NCBI GenBank assembly: GCA_964438935.1
Contig: CAYTNC010000001.1
Span: forward strand, 17,975 to 81,974
Source: an uncultured Bacteroidales bacterium
GTDB taxonomy: Bacteria; Bacteroidota; Bacteroidia; Bacteroidales; UBA10428
Direction of reading: 5' to 3'
DNA: 64,000 bases
The notes beneath the pieces are model-generated. The model saw nothing but the letters and a program-made list of their open reading frames with translations. It did not search any database and had not been told where the DNA came from. Both the position numbers and the translations under genes were made by a program. This document shows, in pieces, positions 3,840 through 64,000 of the stretch; position 1 is the stretch's first letter; each line of letters opens with the position of its first letter.

Positions 3840-4511
3840 TTATTCGGCAATATAGGCCTTTAGTATTTTAATATCAGAAACGGGACGATTGCGTTGATCT
3901 GTTTGTGCTGTAGCTATTTTATCAACAATATCAAAACCTTCTGTCACTTCCCCGAAAACAGTGTAGGCATTGTCAAGATGCGGTACACCGCCAACTGTGG
4001 TGTAGGCATTACGTTGCTCCGGAGTAAAAGGTTCATGCTTTCTGGAACTGACATAGGAATCAAGCTGGGGATTTGTCAATACTTGTCCCTGCACAATATA
4101 AAATTGTGAACCTGATGACTCTTTTTTCGGATTCATGGCGTCCCCCAATCTGGCAGCGGCAATAGCTCCGTTTTTATGAAAGTGTTTGTTTGAAAATTCA
4201 GCCGGAATTGTATAGCCAGGTCCGCCTTCACCAAGCATCTTACCGGAAGGAGCGTTACGTGAGTTGGGATCACCAGCCTGGATCATGAAATCTGAAATAA
4301 CACGATGGAAGAGTAACCCGTCATAATACCCCTGTTTAACCAGTTTGATGAAGTTTTCTTTATGCTTTGGGGTATCATCATAAAGAATAATTTTTATATC
4401 TCCTGCAGTAGTTTGCAGAACTATACTTGTTTGGGCTTTGCTGTTCATAGAGAGGATAAAGGTTAATAAAATAACTACTGGCGCTAAAAAAAGTAATTTG
4501 CTGTTTTTCAT
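3840..4511 (-). CDS. cyclophilin-type peptidyl-prolyl cis-trans isomerase, secreted
   Basis: Cyclophilin signatures FHRVISDFMIQAGDP and GSQFYIV, with an N-terminal signal peptide (LLFLAPVVILLTFILSMNSKAQ). Confidence 0.9.
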   Translation of the reverse strand: MKNSKLLFLAPVVILLTFILSMNSKAQTSIVLQTTAGDIKIILYDDTPKHKENFIKLVKQGYYDGLLFHRVISDFMIQAGDPNSRNAPSGKMLGEGGPGYTIPAEFSNKHFHKNGAIAAARLGDAMNPKKESSGSQFYIVQGQVLTNPQLDSYVSSRKHEPFTPEQRNAYTTVGGVPHLDNAYTVFGEVTEGFDIVDKIATAQTDQRNRPVSDIKILKAYIAE

Positions 4512-4607
4512 GAAGCGTGGTTTTTTGAAATATATTTACGCTATAATAGCGTGTGAAATTATAAAATATTTTGTCCTGATTAATCGTTTGATACAAATTT
4601 TACTTCT

Positions 4608-6095
4608 TTGAATCCTTATAAAAAGCTGGGCGGTCAGGCTGTAATTTACGGTTTGGGTAATGTGGTACCGAGGTTGCTGAATTATGCGGTATTGACAGTT
4701 TATTACACCAGACGATTTTCCATTGAGGAGTTTGGTATGATTACTGAACTCTATGCCTATGTTGCCATTTTACTGATTATTCTTACTTATGGCATGGAGA
4801 CCGGCTTGTTTAAATTTTCTGTTGGAAAAGAGAAAAACAACGCGGTTTATTCCACGGCTCTTATTTCTGTCATCAGTACTTCTGTTTTGTTTTTTTTACT
4901 GATCTTACTTTTTAATAAAAGTATCGCGGTATTAATTGGTTATAAAGGCAATCCTGAATATATCCTTTATCTGGGGCTTACTCTTTCTTTAGACGCCATT
5001 ACATCTATAGCATTTGCGAAATTGCGGATTGAAAACAAGGTGCGGAGATTTGCGACTTTGAAAATTATCAATGTTGTTGTTACCATATTTTTTGTTTTTC
5101 TGTTTCTTGAAGCACTTCCTGGAATTCAGCATATTTCAAAATCAGCATGGTATGTTCAAAAAATTCAGTCTGTTGGTGTTGGATTTGTTTTCATATCAAA
5201 CCTGTTGGCTAGTTTTGTCGTTCTTATTTTGATGCTCAAAGATCACTACCGGCTTAAATGGAGCGTTGATTTGGTGTTGCTTAAGAAACTTCTTATCTAT
5301 TCACTCCCGCTTTTAGTTGCAGGTCTTGCAGGCACTTTTAATGAAACGATTGACCGTATTTTGCTCAGGTCTTTCACGCCAGAGGGATTGAATCCGTTGT
5401 ACGAAATAGGAATTTATGGCGCCAATTATAGGATTGCTGTTCTTATGACACTTTTTGTACAAATGTTCCGCTATGCCGCTGAGCCTTTTTTCTTTAATAT
5501 GACTAAAAGTTCCGATTCAAAGGTTGTTTATGCCAATGTGCTCAAGTATTTCACTATTTTTCTAATGGTAATTTTCCTGGTGGTTGCACTGGGCATTGAT
5601 GTTTTTAAGTTGTTTATAGACAGCAAACATTACGAAGGCCTTAGTATTGTTCCTGTTGTTTTGATGGCTAACGTATTTGTGGGTATGTTGTTTAACGTGA
5701 ACATGTGGTATAAAATTACCGGACATACTATTTATGGGGTTTATATTACCAGCCTGGGAGCGTTGGTTACCATTGTGATGAATATTTTACTGATTCCTTT
5801 ATACAGTTATCATGCCTGTGCCTGGATTCATCTGGTCAGTAATTTTGTTATGCTGAGTCTCACTTATTTGATTGGTCAAAGGTTTTACATGGTTAATTAT
5901 GACCTTGGAAAGATAGTTTTCTACATGGTACTGGCCCTCGGCTTTTATTTTGTTGGGATTGCGTTAAGAACGGATAAAGAATATGTTAATATTGCAATAG
6001 GCCTGGTTTTTGTTGCTGTTTATGTATTCATTTGCAATAAAAGGGAAAATCTATTTAACGTATTTTTGGGAAAAAATGAAAGTAAAGATTGTTAA
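4608..6095 (+). CDS. polysaccharide/oligosaccharide flippase family membrane protein (MOP/PST superfamily)
   Basis: 495-aa polytopic membrane protein (more than 12 hydrophobic spans) with a PST-type N-terminus ([30 protein letters not shown]). It uses a TTG start at 4608, because the first in-frame ATG is far downstream. The position just upstream of dut is common in Bacteroidota. Confidence 0.6.
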
Positions 6096-6507
6096 CAGAT
6101 CGAAACATGCATGTCCGTCTTACGCAACGATGTTGTCTGCCGGCATGGATATTTTTGCCAACCTGGATCAGCCGGTTTTACTGAAACCTTTGGAAAGGGC
6201 GTTAATACCAACAGGATTGTTTATTGAATTGCCGGAAGGATTCGAGGCCCAAATCAGGCCAAGAAGCGGACTGGCTCTAAAAAAGGGAATTACTGTATTA
6301 AATAGTCCGGGTACGGTTGATGCTGATTACCGGGGGGAAATTGGAGTGATACTTGTAAATCTTTCAAATGATGATTTTCTGGTTAATGATGGTGAACGCA
6401 TTTGTCAAATGATTGTTTCAAGACATGAGAAGGTGGAATGGATTGAAACAGATTTACTTAATGGAACAGAAAGAGGAAGTGGCGGTTTTGGTCATACAGG
6501 ATCCTAA
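6076..6507 (+). CDS. dut: dUTP diphosphatase
   Basis: dUTPase motifs [30 protein letters not shown] and [11 protein letters not shown] moved the start to ATG 6076 (MKVKIVNRS...). The track ORF start at 6010 would overlap the flippase gene by 86 nt. Confidence 0.9.
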
Positions 6508-6516
6508 ATTTTATTT

Positions 6517-8256
6517 ATGCAAAACGTGAGAAAGATATTCTTATATTGTTTAATTGTACTCAGTTTTAATCTGTTTGGTAATACTTCATTTGCACAGGAG
6601 GTTTCGCGTGTTTTAAGACCTAACGTGGAAAGAAGCGAGCAGGACTATTACTTTGCTTTTACTGAAGCAACTCGTTACTTTATGACCGGCAATTATATAC
6701 AGGCTGTTAATCTGTATAACGAATGCCTGAGAATCAAATCTTCTAGCGGCGCTCCGCACTATCAGTTGTCACGAATTTTTCTGAATGCCGGTAATAATTT
6801 GCTGGCACTGGAGCATGCAAAAAAGGCTGTTGCATTTGATAAATCCAATAAGTGGTATCTCCAGGGGCTTGCCAATATTTATCAAATCGAAGGGAAGAAA
6901 GATAGCGCTGTTGTTGTTTTAAAGCAACTCTTATTACTTGACGGGAATAATCCTTCTTACCTGATGAATATTGCGGGTTTAAATGAAGAATTGGGCAGGT
7001 TGGATAGTTCAATGAAGTATTTGGATCTGATAGAAAGAAAAATTGGTACTTCAAAGGAGGTATCATTAAAGAGATATCAAATTTATGAAAGCATGAGGTT
7101 GTCAGATAAAGCTCTGGGCAGTCTTAATAAGGCTTATTCATTGGATACATCAGATTATGTTGTTTCTGGAATGCTGGCTGAGTTTTACCGGGGAAGAAGT
7201 CAGGCAGACTCTGCAGCAAAGTATTACAGCAGAATATATCCTGAATATAAATCAGAGCCTATGGTTTCTTATTCCTATGCTGAATTTCTGCTTGAATTGC
7301 ACGATACTGTTAATGCGAGGGATGTATTACTGGAAACTATGAAGGACAAAAAAACTACTGTCCTGCAGAAGTCTGAATACTTTTTGAAATTAATACAGAA
7401 TAAGGAAGTATTTGATTTGAATAGGCCCATTTTAGATACAATTGCAAACGCATATCTGAAGGAATATCCCAATGATATACGTGCTTTATCTGTTTATTCC
7501 GATTTACAAATTCGCCAAAGAAATTACAAGAGGGCAACAGCCGTATTAATAAGGGTTTATGAACTTGATAGAAGGAATTATCTGGCACTTGAACAGTTGT
7601 TGTATACCTTGAATATTTTAGGCAAGAGCGATAGTGTCTTTTTATTTTCAGAAGAAGGGCTTAAAAGTTTTACAGACAGGCCATTGATTTATTTGTTTAA
7701 CGGATCCGCAAAGAACGATCTAAAGAAATTTAGTGAGGCTCTTGTTTCTTTAAACAGAGGATTAAGTATTGTTACGGACAGTGCAATGAAAGTTCAGTTT
7801 TATAATTTGCTGGCCGATTCATACCGGAATCTTGGTGAATATGCCAAGTCTGATGATGCCTTTGAGAAGGCCTTGTTGATAGATCCGGTTAATATTGTTA
7901 TCAGAAACAATTATGCCTATTACCTTTCAGTGCGAGGAGAGAGATTAAAAGTTGCCCGTAAAATGAGCCGGCAAACTTTAAAAGTAGAACCTGAAAATGC
8001 CACCTATCTGGATACCTATGCCTGGATCCTTTTTAGGATGAAAAAGATTTCGAAAGCACAAAGATACATTACCCTTGCACTGAACCACAGTGGTGATCAA
8101 AATAGTGAAATATTGCTGCACGCCGGAGAGATTTTTTTAAAAGCAAGAATATATGATAAGGCTTTGATTTATTATAAGAAGGCAATTACATTGCTTCAGG
8201 GCACTGAAAGACAAGATGCTGAAAATAGGATTAATGCAATAATGATGAAACAGTGA
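6517..8256 (+). CDS. tetratricopeptide (TPR) repeat protein, secreted
   Basis: 579 aa with a signal-like N-terminus (LYCLIVLSFNLFGNTSFAQ) and repeated 34-aa A/Y/L-patterned helices (e.g. GNYIQAVNLYNECLRI, EYAKSDDAFEKALLIDP). Its stop overlaps the next gene's start (ATGA at 8253-8256). Confidence 0.7.
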   Translation: MQNVRKIFLYCLIVLSFNLFGNTSFAQEVSRVLRPNVERSEQDYYFAFTEATRYFMTGNYIQAVNLYNECLRIKSSSGAPHYQLSRIFLNAGNNLLALEHAKKAVAFDKSNKWYLQGLANIYQIEGKKDSAVVVLKQLLLLDGNNPSYLMNIAGLNEELGRLDSSMKYLDLIERKIGTSKEVSLKRYQIYESMRLSDKALGSLNKAYSLDTSDYVVSGMLAEFYRGRSQADSAAKYYSRIYPEYKSEPMVSYSYAEFLLELHDTVNARDVLLETMKDKKTTVLQKSEYFLKLIQNKEVFDLNRPILDTIANAYLKEYPNDIRALSVYSDLQIRQRNYKRATAVLIRVYELDRRNYLALEQLLYTLNILGKSDSVFLFSEEGLKSFTDRPLIYLFNGSAKNDLKKFSEALVSLNRGLSIVTDSAMKVQFYNLLADSYRNLGEYAKSDDAFEKALLIDPVNIVIRNNYAYYLSVRGERLKVARKMSRQTLKVEPENATYLDTYAWILFRMKKISKAQRYITLALNHSGDQNSEILLHAGEIFLKARIYDKALIYYKKAITLLQGTERQDAENRINAIMMKQ

Positions 8257-9461
8257 TATTTAACACAATGAGAATTCTTTTTGTTATAGGTTTGTGGTCT
8301 GTTTTATTCTCATGTCAGCTATTTGGCCAGGATAATGCTAAAAAGATTAGGGAAAACCGGGATAAGACGTTACAGGAAATTGAATATGCAAATAAATTAC
8401 TGATTGAAACGCAGGGAAAAACAAAGGAGTCGCTGAATGAAGTATCCCTGATTAACCATAAATTAAACAAGAGAAAGGAGTTTTTAGTTGGGGTTGAAGT
8501 TGAGATGTCAGTTTTAGATCAAGCCATTGAGGGGAACCAGATGACTATTTACGGTGTTGAAAAGGAAATAGAAAAGCTGAAACAACTTTATGCTAAGATG
8601 ATTCTCAATGGTTATAAAAATCAGAGTAAACAGTTTGTAATGATGTATTTTCTGGCCTCCGAGAATCTGAATCAGCTTTACCGGAGAATTAGAATTATTA
8701 AATTGTTTAACAGCTATTTGAGAAAGAAACATGGTGAATTAAATGGGTTAAGAGCCGACTATTTAATGAAGATTAATGAATTGCAGCGGCTTAAGGGGGA
8801 GAAAGATGTGTTGGCAAAGAAGGCAAAGAAGGAAACGCTCATCATTCAGCAGGAAGTTAATCAGAAGAAAAATTTAGTAAACCAACTTAAAAAAAAGCAA
8901 AAAGAAATTGAGGAGGAAATAAGAAATAAGGAGAAAACAGCTAAAAAGCTTGAAAATGAGTTGAAAAAGATTATTGATGAAGAGCGGAAAAAAATAAAAT
9001 CTTCGGGGTCAAAGGAAAGGATGACCCCTGCTGAGAAAATTATTTCAAGCGACTTTGAAAAGAACGCCGGACGACTTCCCTGGCCAACCCAAAAGGGGGT
9101 GATTACGGGTCAGTATGGTGAGCATCAGCATCCCGATTATAAGTCTGTTACTGTGCGAAACGACGGGATTTACATAGCAACTGGTGCCGGGGAGTCTGCC
9201 AGGTCGATATTTAAAGGTGTTGTTTCAAGAGTTTTTTCAATTCCGGGTGAAAACTTTACTGTTATTATTAAGCATGGTCAATTCTATTCGCTATACCACA
9301 ATTTAATCAATGTGAGCGTAAAAGCCGGACAAAGTGTGGATATTAAGGAAAACATCGGCAGGGTTTTTACAAATAATAATACAAAGGAAACGGTCTTGTA
9401 TTTTCAGATATGGAAAGAAACTGAAAGAAGAGATCCGGAATTGTGGCTGGCTCCTTTATAA
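8253..9461 (+). CDS. EnvC-like murein hydrolase activator (coiled coil plus degenerate M23/LytM domain)
   Basis: Long K/E/Q-rich coiled-coil N-terminal half and a C-terminal LytM fold (GVITGQYGEHQHPDYK..., IIKHGQFYSLYHNL). The usual HxH metal motif is replaced (VLYFQIW), as in non-catalytic EnvC-type activators. Confidence 0.65.
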   Translation: MIFNTMRILFVIGLWSVLFSCQLFGQDNAKKIRENRDKTLQEIEYANKLLIETQGKTKESLNEVSLINHKLNKRKEFLVGVEVEMSVLDQAIEGNQMTIYGVEKEIEKLKQLYAKMILNGYKNQSKQFVMMYFLASENLNQLYRRIRIIKLFNSYLRKKHGELNGLRADYLMKINELQRLKGEKDVLAKKAKKETLIIQQEVNQKKNLVNQLKKKQKEIEEEIRNKEKTAKKLENELKKIIDEERKKIKSSGSKERMTPAEKIISSDFEKNAGRLPWPTQKGVITGQYGEHQHPDYKSVTVRNDGIYIATGAGESARSIFKGVVSRVFSIPGENFTVIIKHGQFYSLYHNLINVSVKAGQSVDIKENIGRVFTNNNTKETVLYFQIWKETERRDPELWLAPL

Positions 9462-9558
9462 ATTGAATTGGTTTTTTTAATAATTTAGCATAAAACTTTC
9501 CTAAAAGAGTAACAAAAGAAGTTTTATTGAGTATATAAAATGAACTGAAATAACCCTG

Positions 9559-9960
9559 GTGATGAAAAGAAGTCTTAAAGTAGCCTCAAAAATTGAGAAT
9601 TTAAGAAAGGTAGAGAAGCTGATAGACGAGTTATCTACCGAATACAATATAAGTGCAGATGTATATGGAAATATTCTTATTGCTGCACTTGAAGCTGCAA
9701 ATAATGCCATTTTGCACGGAAATAAGCTGGATGAAAACAAGAATGTGAATATTGCAGTAGAAATTGATGAGAAGAAGCTTAGAATTAAGATTGATGATGA
9801 AGGAAATGGTTTCGACTATAAGAATGTGCCCGACCCCACTGCCCCGGAAAATATAGAAAATGTTAATGGAAGAGGTATTTTCCTTATGGAAAAGCTCTCA
9901 GATCATATTGTGTTTACTAGGAACGGAGCTACTGTTGAACTTGAGTTTAATATTAAGTAA
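9559..9960 (+). CDS. small GHKL ATPase, anti-sigma-factor-type Ser/Thr kinase-like (RsbW/SpoIIAB-like)
   Basis: 133 aa. N-box LEAANNAILHGN, G1 box DDEGNGFD and G2-like NGRGIFLM are present. There is no HisKA domain. Confidence 0.6.
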   Translation: MMKRSLKVASKIENLRKVEKLIDELSTEYNISADVYGNILIAALEAANNAILHGNKLDENKNVNIAVEIDEKKLRIKIDDEGNGFDYKNVPDPTAPENIENVNGRGIFLMEKLSDHIVFTRNGATVELEFNIK

Positions 9961-55890: not shown

Positions 55891-57237
55891 ATGAAACTTT
55901 GGGACAAAAATATTCAAACTGATCGGTTGATTGAGCAATTCACCATCGGAAAAGATCGTGAACTCGACCTGTTGCTGGCCCGGTATGACATACTCGGATC
56001 GCTGGCTCACATTACCATGCTCGAAAGCATTGGCCTGATCGGTAAAGACGAGCTTCAGGTGCTTATCAAAGAACTGTTGGCCATTTACCACGATGCAGTG
56101 CAGGGCTCCTTTGTTATTGAAGACGGGGTGGAGGATGTTCATTCCCAGGTGGAGCTCATGCTTACACGCCGCATCGGCGATACCGGGAAAAAGATTCATG
56201 CCGCACGCTCCCGCAACGACCAGGTGTTGCTTGACATCAAGCTTTTTATCCGCGACGAAATTCAACAGGTTGTCGGAGAGGTTAATACCCTTTTCAAACT
56301 GCTTCTTTCTCAAAGTGATCAATACCGGCATATACTTATTCCCGGGTACACACACCTGCAAGTGGCTATGCCTTCCTCTTTCGGACTCTGGTTTGGCGCC
56401 TATGCCGAGAATCTGGTTGATGATATGCTCATGATGCAGGCTGCTTACCGGATTAGCGACCAGAATCCCTTAGGTTCGGCAGCCGGATACGGATCCTCAT
56501 TTCCCATTAACCGAAAAATGACTACCGAATTACTGGGTTTTGGCAACCTGAATTATAATGTAATCAATGCGCAAATGAGCCGTGGCAAAACGGAACGGGT
56601 ATGCTCCTTCGCCCTGGCCTCGTTGGCCGGAACACTTTCTAAAATGGCCGGTGATATTTGCCTGTTTGCAAGTCAGAATTTTGGCTTTCTCAAACTTCCC
56701 GATGAGCTGACCACCGGCTCGAGCATCATGCCGCACAAGAAGAATCCGGATGTATTTGAGCTGATCAGGGCCAAATGCAATAAAATACAAGCGCTTCCCG
56801 GAGAAATTGACCACATTTGGAACAACCTGCCTTCGGGTTACTTCAGGGATATGCAAATCATTAAGGAATCCTTTCTTCCAATTTTCTCAGAGATGCATTC
56901 CTGCGTTGACATGGCATGCTATGCTGTTGCCAGGATCACACCCGTTGAAGATGTACTCAATGACAGCCGCTATCAGCATGTTTTTTCGGTTGAGGCAGTC
57001 AATAAACTGGTAATGAACGGAATTCCATTCAGGGAAGCCTACCGCAAAATTGCCATGCAAATTCAGGAGGGCAGCTACCAGCCTGACAAGGAAGTGGTTC
57101 ATTCACACGAAGGAAGTTTGGGCAATTTGTGTAACACCGAAATTGCCACTAAAATGGAACAGGTTCTGAGCCAATTTCACTTTGAAAAGAAGGACAAGGC
57201 TTACCATGATCTTTTAAACAGAAAAGATGGGAAATAA
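55891..57237 (+). CDS. argH: argininosuccinate lyase
   Basis: Fumarate-lyase signature GSSIMPHKKNPD, plus RSRNDQV and PGYTHLQVA. 448 aa. Confidence 0.95.
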   Translation: MKLWDKNIQTDRLIEQFTIGKDRELDLLLARYDILGSLAHITMLESIGLIGKDELQVLIKELLAIYHDAVQGSFVIEDGVEDVHSQVELMLTRRIGDTGKKIHAARSRNDQVLLDIKLFIRDEIQQVVGEVNTLFKLLLSQSDQYRHILIPGYTHLQVAMPSSFGLWFGAYAENLVDDMLMMQAAYRISDQNPLGSAAGYGSSFPINRKMTTELLGFGNLNYNVINAQMSRGKTERVCSFALASLAGTLSKMAGDICLFASQNFGFLKLPDELTTGSSIMPHKKNPDVFELIRAKCNKIQALPGEIDHIWNNLPSGYFRDMQIIKESFLPIFSEMHSCVDMACYAVARITPVEDVLNDSRYQHVFSVEAVNKLVMNGIPFREAYRKIAMQIQEGSYQPDKEVVHSHEGSLGNLCNTEIATKMEQVLSQFHFEKKDKAYHDLLNRKDGK

Positions 57238-57910
57238 GAAAACCATAGTCGTTCGGGTGGAAATATCCACTTTGCTGGGTCCTAACGGTAAAATCAGTCC
57301 CAAAAAGATGGATCGCCTGGCCATGGTAATAACCAATTTGCACAACAGCGGAAAACACGTACTTGTTGTTTCTTCCGGAGCCATAGTACTGGGCGCCGAA
57401 AAGCTGAAACTGCATAACCTGCCCGACAACCTGGTTGATCTTCAGGCTACGGCCGCTGTGGGTCAGGCCGAACTGATCCGGTGTTACCAAAGATACTTCG
57501 ACGACTATAACCAGATTATCGCCCAGGTACTGCTTACCAGCGATATCATCGAATACCCGCAGCGTGTTGAAAATACCCGCAACACCTTCAATACGTTGCT
57601 GGATATGAGCATAATTCCCATTATTAACGAGAACGACCCGGTATCCACATCCGATATAGAATTTGACGACAATTACCCACTTGCGCGAATTGTTGCCGGC
57701 ATTGCCCAGGCTGAATTCATTGTAATCAAAATGGACCTCAACGGAAAGTATCTGATTGTTCCCGCTGGCAATTTTACGGCCCAGGTGGTGGATGGGGAAA
57801 CAGAGCTTCAGGGAAAAATTGATTCCTTCTGTGAGCTTTCCACAACTTGTGAAACTACCGGAAATCTGAATTTTCCGGCTTCTATTGGGGATATTGTTTT
57901 TAACAATTAA
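57227..57910 (+). CDS. glutamate 5-kinase-like protein, catalytically degenerate paralogue of ProB
   Basis: 227 aa. It aligns by eye with the adjacent ProB over about 170 aa, with long identical strings VSSGAI, AAVGQAEL, YNQI.AQVLLT and IIPIINEND. The N-terminal K-x-G-T-S-S loop is replaced (VVRVEISTL against VVKIGTSSL), FGDNDTLSA becomes FDDNYPLAR, and the C-terminal nucleotide lobe (SDIDGLY ... STGGMITK) is absent. The start overlaps the argH stop by 11 nt. Confidence 0.6.
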   Translation: MGNKKTIVVRVEISTLLGPNGKISPKKMDRLAMVITNLHNSGKHVLVVSSGAIVLGAEKLKLHNLPDNLVDLQATAAVGQAELIRCYQRYFDDYNQIIAQVLLTSDIIEYPQRVENTRNTFNTLLDMSIIPIINENDPVSTSDIEFDDNYPLARIVAGIAQAEFIVIKMDLNGKYLIVPAGNFTAQVVDGETELQGKIDSFCELSTTCETTGNLNFPASIGDIVFNN

Positions 57911-57928
57911 ACGGACAAACACGTTATC

Positions 57929-58747
57929 ATGAATTACAGGGAGGTACTGAAATACAAACGCAGGATTGTGGTTAAGATTGGCACGTCATCGCTATCATAT
58001 GCCAACGGTCGGATGAATTTTCACAGCATCGCGAAACTGGCGTACGTGTTGAGCGCAATTCGCAGACAGGGAACCCAGGTTATCCTGGTTTCATCCGGCG
58101 CCATTGGAGTGGGGGCAGGTAGGCTGGGATTGACCAAAAGACCTCAGGAGCTGGCCCGGAAACAGGCATTGGCTGCTGTTGGGCAGGCTGAACTGATGAA
58201 GATTTATCAGAAGTTTTTCGAAGAGTACAATCAGATTGTTGCGCAGGTGCTGCTTACCAAGGATGTGGTGGATATTCCCTCACGAAATCAGCATGCCGGA
58301 CGTACCTTAATCAATCTGCTCGAAAAGGATATCATTCCCATTATTAATGAAAATGATACCATTGCCACCAATGAAATAGAATTCGGTGATAACGACACGC
58401 TTTCTGCCATTGTAGCCTCACTGGTTGAAGCCGACCTGCTTGTCATGCTGTCGGATATTGACGGGCTGTATAATGCAGATCCCAGGTCGGATAAACACGC
58501 TGAAATGATTCATTCGGTTCTTGAAATAACCCCGGAATTGGAACAGCTTGCCTCCGGGGCCGGGTCTTCATTCAGCACAGGCGGCATGATCACCAAGATC
58601 TCTGCTGCCAAAATATGCCTGAAGCAGGGAATCGACTGCCTCATTACCAGTGGTTCTGATCCGGCCATCCTGTTTGACATACTCATAGGTAAGGAAGTGG
58701 GTACCCATTTTGTTGCACAAAAAGAAAATTCTACACATCATGCCTGA
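57929..58747 (+). CDS. proB: glutamate 5-kinase (no PUA domain)
   Basis: Amino-acid-kinase family motifs RIVVKIGTSSL, VSSGAIGVG, FGDNDTLSA, LSDIDGLY and STGGMITK. 272 aa. Confidence 0.9.
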   Translation: MNYREVLKYKRRIVVKIGTSSLSYANGRMNFHSIAKLAYVLSAIRRQGTQVILVSSGAIGVGAGRLGLTKRPQELARKQALAAVGQAELMKIYQKFFEEYNQIVAQVLLTKDVVDIPSRNQHAGRTLINLLEKDIIPIINENDTIATNEIEFGDNDTLSAIVASLVEADLLVMLSDIDGLYNADPRSDKHAEMIHSVLEITPELEQLASGAGSSFSTGGMITKISAAKICLKQGIDCLITSGSDPAILFDILIGKEVGTHFVAQKENSTHHA

Positions 58748-59999
58748 TTTGAAAGAGACATTAACAAATATGGCCGGTAAGGTGAAACTGGCCTCACGTG
58801 AACTTGCCAAAGCCAACACGGCTTTAAAAAACACGGCCCTGAATTGCATTGCCGAAGAAATCGATTCAAACAGACAGGCCATTATTGCAGAAAATAAGAA
58901 AGATATTTTAAGCGGCAAGGAAAAGGGATTGTCGGAGGCTTTCATTGACAGACTTACCCTGAGTGATAAGCGGATTGACGGCCTGATCGGCGTACTGCAT
59001 GAGGTGATCAACCTGAAAGATCCGGTGGGGGAAATATTCAATATGAACGCACTTCCAAACGGGTTAAAGGTAGGTCAGATCAGGGTGCCCATTGGTGTGA
59101 TCGCCATTATTTATGAATCACGACCCAATGTGTGTATTGAAGTTGCCGCCCTAACTATTAAATCCGGTAACGGCGTTATTCTGCGCGGCGGATCCGATGC
59201 CATTCATTCGAGCCTGATTCTTGCAAAGCTGATCAGAAGCGGATTGAAAAAAGCCGGCATTCCGGAAGATGTCGTGGCCATGATTGAAAATACAAACCGG
59301 GAATCAGTGCTTGAGCTGGTTAAACTAAAAGACTTCATAGATGTTATTATACCCAGAGGAGGCCTTCAACTGATCCGTCTGGTCGAGGAGAACTCCATCA
59401 TTCCTGTAATCCGTCACGACATGGGTATCTGTCATACCTATGTAGACGAAATGGCCAATCTGGATATGGCAAAAGAAATATGCTATAATGCCAAAGTTCA
59501 GCGTCCGGGTGTTTGCAATACCATGGAAACCCTTCTTGTTCATCACAAGGTGGCTGAAGAATTTTTGCCTTTAATGAAAAAGGCCTATGATCAGGCAGGT
59601 GTCCGACTGAAGGGTTGCACAAAAACCCGGAAGATACTCCCGGCAGCAGAAGAAGCCACAGAAGAAGATTGGCGTACCGAGTATCTGGATCTGATACTTT
59701 CTGTTAAGGTTGTGGAAAATCTGGACGAAGCCATTGACCACATTAATAATTACAGTTCGCACCATTCCGATGCCATTGTTACCGACAGCTATGAAAAAGG
59801 TATGCGCTTTATCAACGAAGTTGATTCGGCTGCCTGTTTCATCAATGCATCCACCCGTTTCAGCGATGGTAATGAATTCGGATTGGGCGGCGAAATGGGA
59901 ATCAGCAATCAGAAACTTCATGTAAGAGGACCTATGGGACTTAAAGACCTCATGGCTCCGAAATACATCATTTTTGGAAATGGCCAGGTGAGAACCTGA
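58740..59999 (+). CDS. proA: glutamate-5-semialdehyde dehydrogenase
   Basis: Aldehyde dehydrogenase fold with the catalytic Cys context QRPGVCNTMETLLVH, plus IYESRPNV and ILRGGS. I set the start at ATG 58740 (MPDLKETL...), which overlaps the proB stop by 8 nt (ATGCCTGA). The track start at 58710 is 10 codons further upstream. Confidence 0.9.
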   Translation: MPDLKETLTNMAGKVKLASRELAKANTALKNTALNCIAEEIDSNRQAIIAENKKDILSGKEKGLSEAFIDRLTLSDKRIDGLIGVLHEVINLKDPVGEIFNMNALPNGLKVGQIRVPIGVIAIIYESRPNVCIEVAALTIKSGNGVILRGGSDAIHSSLILAKLIRSGLKKAGIPEDVVAMIENTNRESVLELVKLKDFIDVIIPRGGLQLIRLVEENSIIPVIRHDMGICHTYVDEMANLDMAKEICYNAKVQRPGVCNTMETLLVHHKVAEEFLPLMKKAYDQAGVRLKGCTKTRKILPAAEEATEEDWRTEYLDLILSVKVVENLDEAIDHINNYSSHHSDAIVTDSYEKGMRFINEVDSAACFINASTRFSDGNEFGLGGEMGISNQKLHVRGPMGLKDLMAPKYIIFGNGQVRT

Positions 60000-60034
60000 C
60001 CTCAATGTATTATTAACCGTAAATCTAATTTACC

Positions 60035-61387
60035 ATGCAACCACTTAATGAATTCATGCAGAAGCTTGAGGAATTAACCGTCAATGCTTCACAAATCGAC
60101 AAGGATCTCTTTGAAACCTACAATGTCAAAAGAGGACTCAGGAACCAGGATGGTTCAGGCGTACTGGTAGGGCTTACCAACATCGGTGACGTAGTTGGAT
60201 ATGAAAAAAAGGAGAACCAGATTATTCCCTGTGATGGAAGGCTTTACTACAGGGGAATCAACGTGGAGGATCTGGTGCATGGATTTCAGAAGGACAAAAG
60301 GCATGGCTTTGATGAAACCGTTTACCTGTTACTCACAGGCCGGCTCCCGTCAAAGGATGATATGGACCTGTTCACTTCCTATTTGGCCGGTCACCGCGAT
60401 TTGCCAAATGCTTTTGTTAATCTCATCCTTTCGTTCCGGGGAAAGAATATCATGAACATGCTGACCCGGTCGGTACTGGTAATGTACACCCAAGACGATG
60501 AAGCAGAAAACTATTCACACATCAACCTGCTGAAGCAATCGTTGAACCTCATTGCTAAGTTTCCGGTAATTGCAGCCTATGTGTATTTCGGATTCCGCCA
60601 CACCTACCAGCGAAAATCACTGATATTCAGGCATCCGGATCCGTCACTAAGCACAGCAGAAAATTTTCTTTACATGCTCAAGGGTGAGAATTACAGCAGG
60701 CTGGAAGCCGATATTCTTGACCTGGCGCTTGTGCTTCATGCCGAGCACGGTGGTGGTAATAACTCCACCTTTGCCACCCGCGTAATCAGTTCTGCCGGAA
60801 CCGACACCTATTCGGCCATATCTGCCGGCCTGGGTTCACTGAAAGGATTCCTGCATGGCGGGGCCAATCTTCAGGTGGAGGAAATGATGAAAGACATCAA
60901 GAAAAATGTGAAGGACTGGAACAACAAACAGGAAGTTCTTGAATACCTGAAGAAAATCCTCAAGGGCGAAGCAGGTGACGGCTCAGGAAAGATATATGGA
61001 ATCGGACATGCCATTTATACGCTGTCAGACCCCCGGGCTGTGCTGTTGAAGGATAAGGCACGGGAGCTGGCCGGATCCAAAGGAAAAACCGATGAATACC
61101 TGCTTTATGAAGCCATTGAAGAACTCGCTCCCGAAGCGTTTGCAAGCTTTAAGGGAGGTAGTTCCAAGGTGATCAGTGCCAACGTCGACTTTTATTCCGG
61201 TTTTGTATACAAATGCATCGACATTCCCAAGGAACTGTTTACCCCTATTTTTGCCATTGCCCGTATGGCCGGCTGGTGTGCGCACCGCCTCGAAGAAGTG
61301 ACCTTTGCTTCCCGAAGGATCATCAGGCCGGCATATAAAAATATTTTTGGCAGGGTGGATTATGACCCTATGGAAGGAAGACAGTAA
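60035..61387 (+). CDS. gltA: citrate synthase
   Basis: Catalytic-site contexts LVLHAEHGGGNNSTF, GIGHAIYTLSDPRA and NVDFYSG. 450 aa. Confidence 0.85.
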   Translation: MQPLNEFMQKLEELTVNASQIDKDLFETYNVKRGLRNQDGSGVLVGLTNIGDVVGYEKKENQIIPCDGRLYYRGINVEDLVHGFQKDKRHGFDETVYLLLTGRLPSKDDMDLFTSYLAGHRDLPNAFVNLILSFRGKNIMNMLTRSVLVMYTQDDEAENYSHINLLKQSLNLIAKFPVIAAYVYFGFRHTYQRKSLIFRHPDPSLSTAENFLYMLKGENYSRLEADILDLALVLHAEHGGGNNSTFATRVISSAGTDTYSAISAGLGSLKGFLHGGANLQVEEMMKDIKKNVKDWNNKQEVLEYLKKILKGEAGDGSGKIYGIGHAIYTLSDPRAVLLKDKARELAGSKGKTDEYLLYEAIEELAPEAFASFKGGSSKVISANVDFYSGFVYKCIDIPKELFTPIFAIARMAGWCAHRLEEVTFASRRIIRPAYKNIFGRVDYDPMEGRQ

Positions 61388-61422
61388 TATTTGCAGATAG
61401 CCCTATAAAATATAGGGTATCT

Positions 61423-61453
61423 TTTGAAAAATAATAACTTTTATTTATATTTG
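61423..61453 (+). promoter_or_regulatory. Bacteroidota sigma-A-type promoter (-33 TTTG / -7 TAnnTTTG) for the gltB leader
   Basis: TTTG at 61423-61426, a 19-nt spacer, then TATATTTG at 61446-61453. This matches the published Bacteroides consensus TTTG-N19-21-TAnnTTTG. Confidence 0.5.
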
Positions 61454-61471
61454 CCTCGTAAAAAACAGCGT

Positions 61472-61522
61472 ATGAAAAATTTGATTAATAATTATAATCA
61501 TAATATACCTCAATCGTGTTGA
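61472..61522 (+). promoter_or_regulatory. candidate leader peptide ORF (MKNLINNYNHNIPQSC) upstream of gltB
   Basis: ATG 61472 to TGA 61520-61522, 16 codons, of which 5 are AAT (Asn) at codons 3, 6, 7, 9 and 11. The 3' end and stop codon are embedded in the first hairpin of a terminator/antiterminator set. Confidence 0.4.
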
Positions 61523-61548
61523 GGATGGTATTCTTGTTATTTTTTTTT

Positions 61549-61583
61549 AAAGGCCATTCTCAACAGCGGGAATGGCCTTTTTT
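61549..61583 (+). terminator. intrinsic terminator in the gltB 5' leader (candidate attenuator)
   Basis: AAAGGCCATTC (61549-61559) pairs with GAATGGCCTTT (61570-61580) across a 10-nt loop. The T tract runs to 61583, ending 26 nt before the gltB ATG. Confidence 0.7.
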
Positions 61584-61609
61584 CATTGAATAATTTAACA
61601 TGAACATAT

Positions 61610-64000
61610 ATGACGAGTTACGGATTGCCAAAAAAGAAAGGACTGTATGATCCTTCTCAGGAACATGACAGCTGCGGGATTGGATTTGTAGCACAGATCA
61701 AGGGAATTAAATCGCATGAGATCATCCACCGCGGACTGGAAGTATTGGAGAATATGTCGCATCGCGGAGCCGAAAGTGCAGACAACGTGACCGGAGATGG
61801 GGCAGGAATACTGATTCAGCTGCCTCATAGTTTCTTCCTTGCCAAAGGTGTTCAGGTTCCGGCCGAAGGTAAGTACGGAGCAGGAATTGTATTTTTTCCA
61901 AAGGACGTAAAAGAGAGACAGGAATGTGAGCAAATTCTGGTTGATTCTGTTACCTCCGAAGGGCTTTCCTTGATTGGATTCCGTGATGTTCCGGTTGACA
62001 GCGAGATACTGGGTGAAATTTCAAAGGCGTCGGAACCCTTTATGCGTCAGATTTTTGTTTCAGGAGACTTTGAACAGGATGAGCTGGAGCGTAAGTTGTA
62101 TGTTGCCCGCAAACAGGCAGAGAATCGTGTGCGAAATTCAGTTATCCGGCATAAGGAAGCCTTTTACCTCACCGGCCTGTCATCAAAAGTAATGATATAC
62201 AAAGGGCTGTTTACATCCCAGCAGCTGCGTCAATATTTTGTTGATCTCCGCGATCAGAAACTGGAAAGTGCCATTGCCCTAATACATTCACGATTTTCAA
62301 CCAATACCTTTCCCACCTGGGACCTGGCACAACCGTTCCGTTTCCTGGGCCATAACGGAGAAATCAACACCATCAAGGGGAACCGGATGTGGATGAGTGC
62401 CCGTGAAGCCCTCATGAAAACAGGGGTACTGGGTGAAGACCTGAAAAAGATTTTCCCGGTTATTGAACCCGATAAGAGTGATTCGGCCTCACTTGATAAC
62501 GCATTGGAATTCCTGGTGCTTACCGGAAAATCGTTGCCTCACGCCCTGAGCATGCTGATACCTGAATCGTGGAACGATAAAAATCCGATTCCCGAAAGTC
62601 TTAAAGCCTTTTATGAGTATCATTCAACCATTATGGAACCCTGGGATGGCCCGGCATCAATAGTGTTCAGTGACGGGCGATATATTGGCGGCACACTTGA
62701 CCGGAATGGACTTCGGCCATCACGCTATATCATCACCAAAGATGATCTGATTGTAATGGGGTCCGAAGTTGGCGTTCAGCATTTTGCTCCCGACCAGATC
62801 AAGGAAAAAGGCCGGTTGAAACCAGGGAAAATACTGTTGGTTGACACCCGGTTTGGAATCATTGTCCCCGATGATGAGTTGAAAAGGCAACTCACGGAAA
62901 GAAATCCCTATTCAAACTGGCTGAAGGAAAACCGGATTGAACTTTCAGATATTGTAGTTAAAGAGCGGATACCCACAACATTGGGTGAGCAGCACAATAC
63001 CTACATGAAGGTTTTCGGTTACAACAAGGAAGACCTTGAAGTGCTTATCAGACCCATGGCGGTTGACGGTCAGGAACCGGTTAGTTCAATGGGAAATGAT
63101 ACACCGCTTGCCGTAATGTCTGATAAGCCCCAACGCCTGTTCAATTACTTCAGACAGCATTTTGCGCAGGTAACAAACCCACCTATTGACCCAATACGGG
63201 AAGGCCTGGTGATGTCGCTTACCAATTATATCGGATCGGTTTCCAGGAATCTGCTTATTGAATCACCTACACACTGCAAACTGATCAAATTCCGAAGTCC
63301 CATTGTTTCCAATACCGACCTGGGCAAGATCAAGAACCTGGACCAGGCACAGTTTTCTCATGTTGTACTGCCCATGCTTTTTGCAGCTGATTCGGACAAT
63401 CCGGGCGATACGCTCCAAAAGGCAATTGAAGAATTGTGCAAAAAAGCTGAAGATGCCGTTGATCAGGGAAAAAACTTCGTCATTCTTTCAGACCGTAACA
63501 TCAGTGAATCACTTGCTCCCATACCCTCACTGCTTGCAGTATCGGCAGTGCACCACCATCTGATTAACACGCAAAAGAGAATGCAGATTGGACTTATCGT
63601 GGAAACAGCCGAACCCAGGGAGGTGAACCATTTTGCGCTGCTTTTTGCTTTTGGCGCCAGTGTGGTCAACCCTTACTTTGTCTTTGCCATCATTGAAAAA
63701 TTGTGTGAAACCGGCCAGATCAAAGACGATTATGTAACTGCACGGGAGCATTATATCAAGGCCATCGACAAGGGTTTGCTGAAGGTCATGTCAAAGATGG
63801 GCATATCCACACTGCGCAGTTATCATGGTGCCCAGATATTTGAAGCAATCGGGTTGGCAAAGGAAGTGGCTCATACCTATTTTACCGGAACCGATTCCCG
63901 GATCGGAGGCATAGGGCTGAATGAAATTGCACAGGAAGCCTTGATGCAGCAAAGGATGGCCTTCACGCACAACAATCAGGAAACTCTTATTCCCGCCACT
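61610..64000 (+). CDS. gltB: glutamate synthase large subunit, N-terminal 797 codons (3' end lies outside the window)
   Basis: Not in the ORF track because the frame has no stop in the window. Frame 2 from ATG 61610 gives MTSYGLPKKKGLYDPSQEHDSCGIGFVAQIKG... (Ntn amidotransferase Cys in SCGIGF). I spot-checked the frame at 62282 (IHSRFSTNTFPTWDLAQPFRFLGHNGEINTIKGN) and at the window end; other-frame ORFs in this region are short. Confidence 0.9.
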   Translation, partial: MTSYGLPKKKGLYDPSQEHDSCGIGFVAQIKGIKSHEIIHRGLEVLENMSHRGAESADNVTGDGAGILIQLPHSFFLAKGVQVPAEGKYGAGIVFFPKDVKERQECEQILVDSVTSEGLSLIGFRDVPVDSEILGEISKASEPFMRQIFVSGDFEQDELERKLYVARKQAENRVRNSVIRHKEAFYLTGLSSKVMIYKGLFTSQQLRQYFVDLRDQKLESAIALIHSRFSTNTFPTWDLAQPFRFLGHNGEINTIKGNRMWMSAREALMKTGVLGEDLKKIFPVIEPDKSDSASLDNALEFLVLTGKSLPHALSMLIPESWNDKNPIPESLKAFYEYHSTIMEPWDGPASIVFSDGRYIGGTLDRNGLRPSRYIITKDDLIVMGSEVGVQHFAPDQIKEKGRLKPGKILLVDTRFGIIVPDDELKRQLTERNPYSNWLKENRIELSDIVVKERIPTTLGEQHNTYMKVFGYNKEDLEVLIRPMAVDGQEPVSSMGNDTPLAVMSDKPQRLFNYFRQHFAQVTNPPIDPIREGLVMSLTNYIGSVSRNLLIESPTHCKLIKFRSPIVSNTDLGKIKNLDQAQFSHVVLPMLFAADSDNPGDTLQKAIEELCKKAEDAVDQGKNFVILSDRNISESLAPIPSLLAVSAVHHHLINTQKRMQIGLIVETAEPREVNHFALLFAFGASVVNPYFVFAIIEKLCETGQIKDDYVTAREHYIKAIDKGLLKVMSKMGISTLRSYHGAQIFEAIGLAKEVAHTYFTGTDSRIGGIGLNEIAQEALMQQRMAFTHNNQETLIPAT

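Follow-up and report, generated by a model that had tools for sequence, protein, structure and literature searches.

Leader-peptide attenuation is a textbook mechanism for the control of amino acid operons, exemplified by trpL, hisL, leuL, thrL, ilvL and pheL in Escherichia coli and Salmonella. Classical leaders with mixed regulatory codons exist, such as thrL, which combines Thr and Ile codons, and ilvL, which combines Ile, Leu and Val codons. As for glutamate synthase (GOGAT), its control is known to involve Lrp, GltC/TnrA and the Ntr systems, and glutamine riboswitches in some bacteria. In this work, we analysed a 64-kb stretch of DNA from an uncultured Bacteroidales bacterium (hereafter, the window), in which a short leader with an open reading frame (ORF) of its own precedes gltB, the gene for the large subunit of glutamate synthase. 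We propose that this leader is a functional ribosome-dependent, i.e. leader-peptide, transcription attenuator of the gltBD operon, a reading to which we assign a probability of roughly 0.8. A preliminary description of the window had suggested a ribosome-mediated transcription attenuator with its own promoter at this site, and that suggestion is borne out by the occurrence of the same anatomy in 42 loci and of the same cassette, with cognate codons, at leuA and ilvD.

In Bacteroidota, leader-peptide attenuation upstream of amino acid operons has been mentioned in passing for Flavobacterium (PMC9723704), and short ORFs in long 5' untranslated regions have been noted for Bacteroides thetaiotaomicron (PMC7366714). 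Reported RNA elements near glutamate synthase genes belong to the riboswitch type, namely the glutamine riboswitch (glnA RNA) and the gltD (SRC-18-1) riboswitch candidate (PMC8632094). Our literature search returned general remarks only, with no leader peptide or attenuator described for gltBD/GOGAT and none with Asn or Lys as regulatory codons; the preliminary description likewise knew of no Asn-sensing leader for GOGAT. In Rfam 15, no family, glnA RNA included, fits the spacer upstream of gltB in a search at E <= 10. Neither the whole window nor the leaders of seven related loci give a match at gathering score, the His, Leu, Thr and Trp leaders, Bacteroid-trp, glnA and T-box being among the families covered. 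The best sub-threshold match, to L10_leader (26 bits for a threshold of 44), is driven by the terminator.

The gltB leader resembles the classical trpL/hisL-type attenuators in that a short leader ORF with clustered regulatory codons is followed by a terminator before the first structural gene, and in that the antiterminator shares an arm with the terminator, the choice between the two helices being set by the position of the ribosome, as deduced here from the sequence. Nevertheless, it has no sequence or Rfam relationship with them. Its target is a central nitrogen-assimilation enzyme rather than an end-product pathway, and its Asn and Lys codons do not correspond to the product of the operon. 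Unlike in the classical systems, the antiterminator arm includes the stop codon of the ORF within its own first bases, and the protecting hairpin between the first two pairing segments (1:2) is weak or absent, such that a lack of translation would probably result in read-through and not in super-attenuation. With the glutamine riboswitch and the gltD motif, the gltB leader has in common that they are cis-acting 5' leader RNAs placed before glutamate synthase genes, and all are presumed to report nitrogen status. However, the former are ligand-binding folds without a leader ORF, whereas the variable spacer of the gltB leader leaves no conserved pocket.

Anatomy and conservation of the gltB leader

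The leader lies in the 222-nucleotide (nt) spacer between the citrate synthase gene and gltB. All window coordinates refer to the + strand of the 64-kb window, and the elements were read directly in the segment 61200-61800 (Table 1). The promoter, the ORF, the pairing segments, the terminator and the stop codon inside segment 2, as outlined in the preliminary description, are all present on direct reading.

Table 1. Features of the gltB leader and its immediate surroundings in the window.
Feature	Coordinates	Strand	Description	Basis or remark
Promoter, Bacteroidota-type	61423..61453	+	-33 TTTG 61423-26, 19-nt spacer, -7 box TATATTTG 61446-53	Sequence; transcription start site predicted
Leader ORF	61472..61522	+	16 codons + TGA, peptide MKNLINNYNHNIPQSC	Sequence; conserved in relatives
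Putative regulatory AAT (Asn) codons 3, 6, 7, 9, 11	61478-80, 61487-92, 61496-98, 61502-04	+	Positions -14, -11, -10, -8, -6 from the stop	
Segment 1	61508..61513	+	CCTCAA, pairs with TTGAGG 61519-24	Weak, lineage-specific hairpin; possibly pause or protector
Segment 2	61517..61529	+	Antiterminator 5' arm TGTTGAGGATGGT, holds the leader stop TGA 61520-22	Sequence, alignment, folding
Segment 3	61552..61565	+	Shared arm GGCCATTCTCAACA, partner of segment 2 or segment 4	Columns of alignment A1 that vary least
Segment 4 and U-tract	61568..61583	+	Terminator 3' arm GGGAATGGCC 61568-77 and T6 61578-83	Terminator scan, folding
gltB, glutamate synthase large subunit, 5' part	61610..64000, runs off the window	+		Pfam GATase_2 and Glu_syn_central; NCBIfam PRK11750, E = 1e-256
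Small hairpin with T-rich tail	61400..61418	+	CCCTATA/TATAGGG, 13 nt past the citrate synthase stop	Terminator-like site in consensus scan

The core of segment 2, TTGAGGATGG (61519-28), is complementary to CCATTCTCAA (61554-63) with a single G-U pair, and relative to the consensus of the family, segment 2 of the window carries one A-to-G change that keeps a G-U pair. The target of segment 2 belongs to an intrinsic terminator formed by GGCCATTC (61552-59) and GAATGGCC (61570-77) with the T6 run, for which a consensus scan gives 13 pairs and whose end lies 26 nt before the gltB ATG at 61610. The 133-nt leader folds with a free energy of -33.1 kcal/mol (z = -3.6 relative to shuffles). Taken in isolation, the window helices amount to -7.4 kcal/mol for 1:2, -17.0 kcal/mol for the antiterminator (13 bp, 61517-29 with 61553-65) and -19.6 kcal/mol for the terminator.

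To place the leader in a comparative framework, we used the first 450 residues of GltB to scan genomes, one for each species, and collected 80 loci with 10-kb flanks (numbered with L). These comprise uncultured Bacteroidales at 70-95% GltB identity, followed by Marinilabiliaceae, Prolixibacteraceae, Alkaliflexus and Bacteroides fragilis at 67-70%. The leader is present in 42 of the 80 loci, essentially all of L001-L044 as well as L059, and by eye it is apparently also found in L049 and L077. These 42 loci share a TAnnTTTG promoter, an ORF of 14-19 codons, the antiterminator and the intrinsic terminator. The short ORF and both structures thus recur upstream of gltB in relatives, the comparison that the preliminary description had proposed. 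No leader was found in the more distant families among the 80 loci, i.e. those at 67-70% identity. Part of the gltB upstream region is replaced by runs of N in L008 (about 9830-9925), L032 and L072, which were left out of the statistics.

Three nearly invariant blocks stand out in alignment A1 of the leaders: (T)TGAGAATGG, GCCATTCTC, and (GA)GAATGGC followed by T4-T9. The terminator stem with its T4-T9 run is found in 42/42 leader-bearing loci. The spacer between segments 2 and 3 varies both in length (18-30 nt) and in sequence, and the distance from the cassette to the gltB ATG is 20-57 nt in most loci and up to 90 nt in L043. Upstream, the TAnnTTTG -7 box is exact in 30 of 37 loci and is mostly located 17-24 nt before the leader ATG. 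No further copy of the cassette motif turned up, be it in the 64-kb window or in the 1.47 Mb of fetched sequence.

The conservation of the ORF concerns its length and its end point. An ATG-initiated ORF of 14-19 codons is present in 31 of 37 loci, and it ends with a TGA whose GA forms the first bases of GAGAATGG. Among the 33 loci with a stop at this canonical site, 31 have an ATG ORF of 13-22 codons ending there, when 1.76 would be predicted by dinucleotide shuffles of these 66 nt; the corresponding binomial tail is nominally 1e-37, a value inflated by shared ancestry, even though the peptides are too divergent to align. In L037 and L038, TAA replaces TGA, so that the stop is kept despite the changed pairing base. 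The other two frames contain only trivial ORFs at this place. A conserved length and end point combined with a non-conserved peptide sequence marks out a regulatory leader, as opposed to a small protein.

The pairing partners are conserved with similar precision. Segments 2 and 3 pair in 92.0% of the cells of alignment A1, as compared with 33-53% when the partner is slid by one to three columns, and segments 3 and 4 in 93.8%, the range for slid partners over both helices being 32-53%. Segment 3 is the most invariant of the three, and segments 2 and 4 vary almost only from A to G, which preserves a G-U pair with segment 3. An A-to-G change that affects segment 3 of L040 meets a compensating U-to-C change in segment 4 and is tolerated as a G-U pair in segment 2, and the same appears by eye in L049 and L077. 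As the columns hardly vary, support for the structure rests on conserved complementarity and on the pattern of tolerated changes. The two alternative structures are iso-energetic, with medians of -12.8 and -13.2 kcal/mol. When the transcript is cut off just past segment 3, the fold of lowest energy is the antiterminator in 41 of the 42 loci, even with segment 1 present.

The preliminary description had assigned to the leader the 1:2/2:3/3:4 logic of the trp and his attenuators. The mutually exclusive antiterminator and terminator and the position of the stop codon within segment 2 fit this scheme, but the 1:2 hairpin does not hold across the family. Across the loci, its fixed register is paired in 59% of cells, its median duplex energy is -4.2 kcal/mol and its mean z relative to shuffles is -0.74. 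It is clearly better than shuffles in only 8 of 42 loci and absent in many, and it is present in the window and its close relatives. We thus rejected a conserved 1:2 hairpin, which is weak and patchy both in fixed-register pairing and in register-free duplex energy compared with shuffles. Given this weakness and the antiterminator as the nascent fold, we read the switch as essentially two-state, with read-through and not super-attenuation as its default.

Other features were observed around the gltB start. In L003-L005, L013, L015, L019, L020 and L025, a CCC(C)...N6-10...GGG arrangement (e.g. ccctcaatgaaaaggg) is present in the 18-24 nt that separate the leader ATG from the -7 box. It might form a 5'-terminal hairpin with its 3' arm, AGGG, 5-8 nt before the leader ATG; the window, L001 and L002 have only a 3-bp version of it. 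As for the leaderless loci, those of Saccharicrinis/Marinilabiliaceae (L052, L056, L061, L063, L067, L071, L073, L076 and L078) have a conserved GTTCAGTATTATTCCTTCTTTATTAATATATAGATATG after a variable hairpin about 250 nt 5' of gltB, and those of Prolixibacteraceae (L060, L065 and L068-L070) have a conserved GATTGATTTACTTATAAATTTTCGTTTTCGTGGATTGATTTG at about the same distance of 250 nt. The leaderless families thus seem to carry different cis-elements at gltB.

Codon content of the gltB, leuA and ilvD leaders

The ORFs of the gltB leaders are rich in Asn and Lys codons. In 31 non-redundant genome leaders, Lys represents 18% and Asn 15% of the residues, with z values of 3.7 and 3.5, respectively, relative to stop-free shuffles of the same nucleotides; the two percentages also apply to the larger set of 43-50 distinct gltB leaders. 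Asn and Lys together reach 34% in gltB leaders versus 15% in 260 control intergenic short ORFs from the same loci; the corresponding values are 23% for the A-rich subset of these control ORFs, 17% for codons 2-17 of long genes and 12.7% for the proteins of the window. Relative to the A-rich controls, Asn is 2.0-fold enriched (p = 3e-5). AAT occurs 61 times in frame versus 24 and 15 times out of frame (p = 2e-8), and AAG 25 times versus 6 and 4 times (p = 1e-5). In contrast with these codons, those for Glu are depleted.

The distribution of the Asn and Lys codons along the ORF is not uniform. At least three of them are found between positions -5 and -13 from the stop in 42 of 43 leaders. Their share is 28-72% at positions -5 to -12 (60% at -5, 72% at -6) and does not exceed 19% from -4 to -1. 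Seen from the start of the ORF, they peak at codons 6-13 rather than at the initiation-proximal codons 2-5, and they are located 15-39 nt upstream of the stop. All 43 leaders contain Lys, and four of them have no Asn. The window leader, with five Asn and one Lys, is the Asn-rich extreme of the family, which is best described as Asn/Lys (AAN)-rich and not Asn-specific. Strict Asn specificity was therefore rejected on family-wide composition, with Lys as frequent as Asn and four leaders devoid of Asn. The Asn-sensing leader initially proposed captures the window, where Asn dominates, and the residue that is most clearly enriched, but it is too narrow for the family. With regard to the accompanying caveat that AAT codons come cheaply in AT-rich spacers, Asn stands out by its 2.0-fold enrichment over A-rich controls and AAT by its frame specificity, and the enrichment of Lys over these controls is not significant.

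A second line of evidence comes from other operons. We scanned metagenome contigs with the exact pattern GAGAATGG-N16-34-GCCATTCTC-N2-14-GAATGGC and obtained at least 120 loci (L081-L200). Among the matches listed, about 25 precede gltB, and most of the others display the same promoter box, a short ORF ending at the same U-GA, and the same cassette, which reads UGAGAAUGG...GCCAUUCUC...GAAUGGC-Un as RNA. By NCBIfam equivalogs, the genes 3' of the cassette code for 2-isopropylmalate synthase LeuA and for dihydroxy-acid dehydratase IlvD, the latter in two forms. An aminotransferase-ilvD-ilvB string is also found behind the cassette, with the leader MQQTVVISSIINIIIMVNKM. Example sites are L081 3520-3740 (- strand), L091 9140-9330 and L127 5660-5830 (- strand). 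In our literature search, Bacteroidota leu/ilv leaders of this type were not found named or curated, and they have no counterpart among the families of Rfam 15.

The composition of these leaders follows the operon. Among the matches listed, 38 distinct leuA leaders contain 54% Leu+Ile+Val (51% Leu+Ile) and 10% Asn+Lys (e.g. MEKLVIILGIILLGLLRTPA), and 15 distinct leaders of the main ilvD form contain 56% Leu+Ile+Val and 7% Asn+Lys (e.g. MKYIHIILFLLVVSVITPHK). In comparison, 50 distinct gltB leaders contain 21% Leu+Ile+Val and 34% Asn+Lys. The leuA and ilvD leaders, with 20-21 codons, are longer than those of gltB, with about 17. In the leu/ilv leaders, the Leu, Ile and Val codons are found from -5 to about -15, with a drop at -4; at -5 and -6, their occupancy is 94-100%. 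The Asn and Lys codons of the gltB leaders occupy the very zone of these cognate codons and drop at the same position. What the two groups share further includes (U)GAGAAUGG(UAU), a 16-34-nt spacer, GCCAUUCUC, a loop, GAAUGGC and a U-run, together with the TAnnTTTG promoter, an ORF that ends with UGA at the same base, and regulatory codons from -5 upstream. As far as sequence comparison can tell, the gltB leader is a paralogous use of an amino acid attenuator cassette whose regulatory slot is filled with Asn/Lys codons. In L091, positions 9004-9110 correspond to a Bacteroidales small signal recognition particle RNA (RF04183, 99.9 bits), about 130 nt 5' of the ilvD leader, which identifies that metagenome contig as Bacteroidales.

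An additional feature of the cassette is a UAU-R motif that follows segment 2 (window 61529-61532; +8 to +11 after GAGAATGG). It is nearly invariant in the leuA and ilvD leaders, with frequencies of 1.0, 0.9, 1.0 and 1.0 for T, A, T and R in those of leuA, and less strictly kept, i.e. semi-conserved, in those of gltB. It has no pairing partner in the antiterminator or the terminator helix, and its role may be that of a contact site or of a signal for polymerase pausing. A T-box-like contact with tRNA (UGGU versus ACCA) and an anti-Shine-Dalgarno contact were considered for UAU-R and dropped, as no supporting evidence was found.

The unpaired UAU-R, together with the conservation of the primary sequences of the stems across operons and lineages, might hint at a sequence-specific reader. 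One could thus envision a trans-acting factor, be it an RNA-binding protein, a small RNA or a metabolite, that recognizes the invariant UGAGAAUGGUAU / GCCAUUCUC, the ORF being incidental or auxiliary. We consider this very improbable. The presence, length and stop position of the ORF are conserved far beyond chance, and the composition of the leader tracks the operon, with Leu/Ile for leuA, Ile/Val for ilvD and Asn/Lys for gltB, a specificity that one shared factor could not provide. Furthermore, the spacer between segments 2 and 3, variable as it is in length and sequence, leaves no room for a ligand pocket, and no match to a riboswitch or a protein-binding leader is found in Rfam. The frozen stems can be accounted for otherwise, since the triple complementarity of segment 3 to segments 2 and 4 itself slows sequence change.

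Several observations weigh against the proposed attenuator or against the role of its codons. At equilibrium, the window leader folds into the terminator with every ribosome mask applied, and the complete leader does so in 33 of the 42 loci, whatever is masked. Equilibrium folding alone thus cannot demonstrate the switch, and the attenuator model depends on co-transcriptional kinetics. In the masked folding suggested by the preliminary description, the terminator thus prevails, and only the truncated transcript, which mimics the co-transcriptional fold, yields the antiterminator. Of the compensatory changes that were to be looked for in relatives, that of L040 was found, along with pairing in 92-94% of cells, but double-sided covariation is scarce in helices that are nearly invariant, and 49-92 of 500 shuffles reach the covariation values observed for the antiterminator. 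The stop codon is lost by a TGA-to-CGA change in L012 (9950-9965), L018 (1245-1330) and the metagenomic locus L135. In these variants, the ORF reads through segment 2 to end four codons further with REWD or REWN, and in L018 it continues through the whole terminator. With respect to the codons, Lys is enriched only 1.25-fold over A-rich control ORFs, which is not significant. Asn and Lys are mixed in the gltB leaders without long homopolymeric runs, and neither is the product of the regulated enzyme, as glutamate synthase makes Glu; any link of the codons to the operon would run indirectly, by way of the nitrogen supply. Finally, the A-rich codons could in part result from selection for the unstructured, Shine-Dalgarno-independent initiation regions of Bacteroidota.

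These last points are also those invoked by the main rival to the sensing of Asn and Lys. In that scenario, which we deem improbable, the leader is a genuine leader-ORF attenuator that reports general translation capacity or coupling, in response to any shortage of amino acids or energy, to ribosome availability or to (p)ppGpp, and the A-rich codons are a by-product of an unstructured, efficiently initiated ORF. It would also fit with the leaders that have no Asn, with the absence of asnB from the operon and with the antiterminator as the default nascent fold, so that any delay of the ribosome gives read-through. Yet, the leuA and ilvD leaders, which are U/C-rich and hydrophobic, have the same cassette, so A-richness is not a requirement of the cassette. 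In addition, AAT and AAG are frame-specific, Asn exceeds its A-rich controls 2-fold, and the Asn/Lys peak is not at the initiation-proximal codons 2-5 and ends at -4 as do the cognate codons of the leu/ilv leaders. On balance, we lean slightly towards the charging of tRNA-Asn and tRNA-Lys as the specific signal of the gltB attenuator.

The flanking genes and the upstream hairpin

The gene upstream of the leader codes for citrate synthase, a 450-residue ORF that ends at 61387 (Pfam, NCBIfam). It is the last of a string (window 55891-61387) that consists of an argH-like lyase gene, a gene for a 225-residue protein of the amino acid kinase family, proB, proA and the citrate synthase gene. The succession from the argH-like lyase to citrate synthase, followed by the leader, gltB and gltD, is kept in many relatives (e.g. 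L001, L004, L005, L009, L013, L015 and L019, at 4200-9800). A glutamate-family cluster thus adjoins gltBD.

The small hairpin that follows the citrate synthase stop codon is weaker, with its T-run, than the leader terminator in the consensus terminator scan. By eye, a CCC(T)...(A)GGG hairpin with a T-rich tail is also present after the citrate synthase stop in L001, L003-L005, L019 and others, directly 5' of the -33 TTTG of the leader promoter. Ahead of that promoter, the upstream gene is thus provided with a candidate terminator of its own. The 61400-18 hairpin is the probable terminator of the argH-proB-proA-citrate synthase string, separating two transcription units and lying outside the switch. 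As this hairpin is weak, transcripts reading through from upstream may also enter the attenuator.

These data bear on the most conservative explanation, namely that nothing here is regulatory, the leader hairpin being the terminator of citrate synthase or a bidirectional one and the ORF being a frame left open by chance in an AT-rich spacer. AAT-rich short ORFs are indeed cheap in AT-rich DNA, and the terminator stem of the window is flanked by runs of T and A. Nevertheless, this explanation is already contradicted by the comparative data, as far as sequences can do so, and we regard it as having hardly any chance of being correct. The citrate synthase gene is followed by a separate hairpin and T-run, and the promoter lies between that hairpin and the leader. 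In several leader-bearing loci the upstream sequence is unrelated, and the cassette is also found before leuA and ilvD, both of which indicate that the element goes with the downstream gene and not with citrate synthase. The ORF is present in 31 of 33 loci when fewer than two would be expected, and the complement of segment 3 is conserved upstream of it. The earlier view that the leader hairpin is not merely the citrate synthase terminator is sustained on the same grounds.

Downstream, gltB runs off the window. In the syntenic locus L001, whose GltB is 95% identical, it is followed by gltD and by genes for an EamA transporter, a GH3-family protein and a deoxynucleoside kinase (Pfam; gltD also NCBIfam). 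The preliminary description had rationalized the sensing of Asn by the co-transcription of asnB downstream of gltBD. This idea was rejected, as the genes that follow gltB in L001 do not include asnB. Moreover, a tblastn search with an E. coli AsnB query, which tolerates errors in the query sequence, revealed no AsnB homologue within 10 kb of gltB (where the contig reaches) in any leader-bearing locus, nor in the window. The only homologues were found in three leaderless Alkaliflexus/Marinilabiliaceae loci, L058 (8071-9501), L064 (8033-9433) and L079 (4161-5561), all on the - strand. They share 38-40% identity with E. coli AsnB and are located upstream of gltB on the opposite strand, directly adjacent to it in L058 and L064. 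Linkage between asnB and gltB thus occurs in Bacteroidales, and never together with the gltB attenuator in the loci examined.

Proposed mechanism and its meaning

How might the leader operate? We propose that transcription starts a few nt after 61453, at the Bacteroidota promoter of the leader, and that the 16-codon ORF is translated while RNA polymerase moves on. A ribosome proceeding unhindered to the UGA at 61520-22 would mask segment 2 (61517-29), allowing 61552-65 to pair with 61568-80 and termination to take place at about 61583. A ribosome stalled on the AAU codons (AAU, AAA or AAG in relatives), 5-13 codons before the stop, would leave segment 2 free to pair with segment 3 as soon as the latter is made; no terminator would then form, and the polymerase would read through into gltB. 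In the absence of a ribosome, the antiterminator would also be the favoured nascent fold, which makes the ribosome on the stop codon the presumed cause of termination. The geometry of masking in this model relies on ribosome footprint sizes, which are general knowledge.

Why Asn and Lys codons might be read by a glutamate synthase leader can be rationalized from the origin of the nitrogen atoms of these residues. In Asn, the amide comes from glutamine or ammonia and the amino group from glutamate, and in Lys both nitrogens are derived from glutamate by way of aspartate and the diaminopimelate aminotransferase. It is thus plausible that a shortage of assimilated nitrogen is indicated early by both amino acids. 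Such a shortage would be signalled by tRNA-Asn and tRNA-Lys that are poorly charged, and the synthesis of glutamate synthase would presumably be raised in response. The glutamate pool itself is very large, which would make Glu codons poor sensors, in line with their depletion in the leaders.

Three traits of the gltB leader are unusual: its target belongs to central nitrogen assimilation, its codons are not cognate to the product, and a single frozen cassette, with its unpaired UAU-R, is shared across operons. A more speculative and, at this point, rather doubtful extension of our model links these traits. The leader would be a translational 'nitrogen gauge' that governs central nitrogen assimilation in a large uncultured Bacteroidales lineage, in which the charging of tRNA-Asn and tRNA-Lys, read by a ribosome on the 16-codon ORF, sets the transcription of glutamate synthase, and the invariant cassette common to the leu, ilv and glt operons would encode more than pairing. 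If this were true, the nitrogen gauge would be the first attenuator to sense downstream proxies of the product of an enzyme instead of the product itself. The UAU-R and the frozen stems would then represent, for example, a polymerase pause built into the cassette to synchronize the ribosome and the polymerase, or a site for a common factor.

The elements described here also provide a signature for annotation, consisting of TAnnTTTG, a short ORF and UGAGAAUGG...GCCAUUCUC...GAAUGGC-Un. It may help to find attenuators and small ORFs in Bacteroidota, in which ORF calling based on Shine-Dalgarno sequences fails. If our reading of the gltB leader is confirmed, leader-peptide attenuation in Bacteroidota would extend past end-product pathways to central nitrogen assimilation, and Asn and Lys codons would be able to act as regulatory codons. 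The re-use of one modular terminator/antiterminator cassette with different leader ORFs would then represent a natural plug-and-play sensor design.

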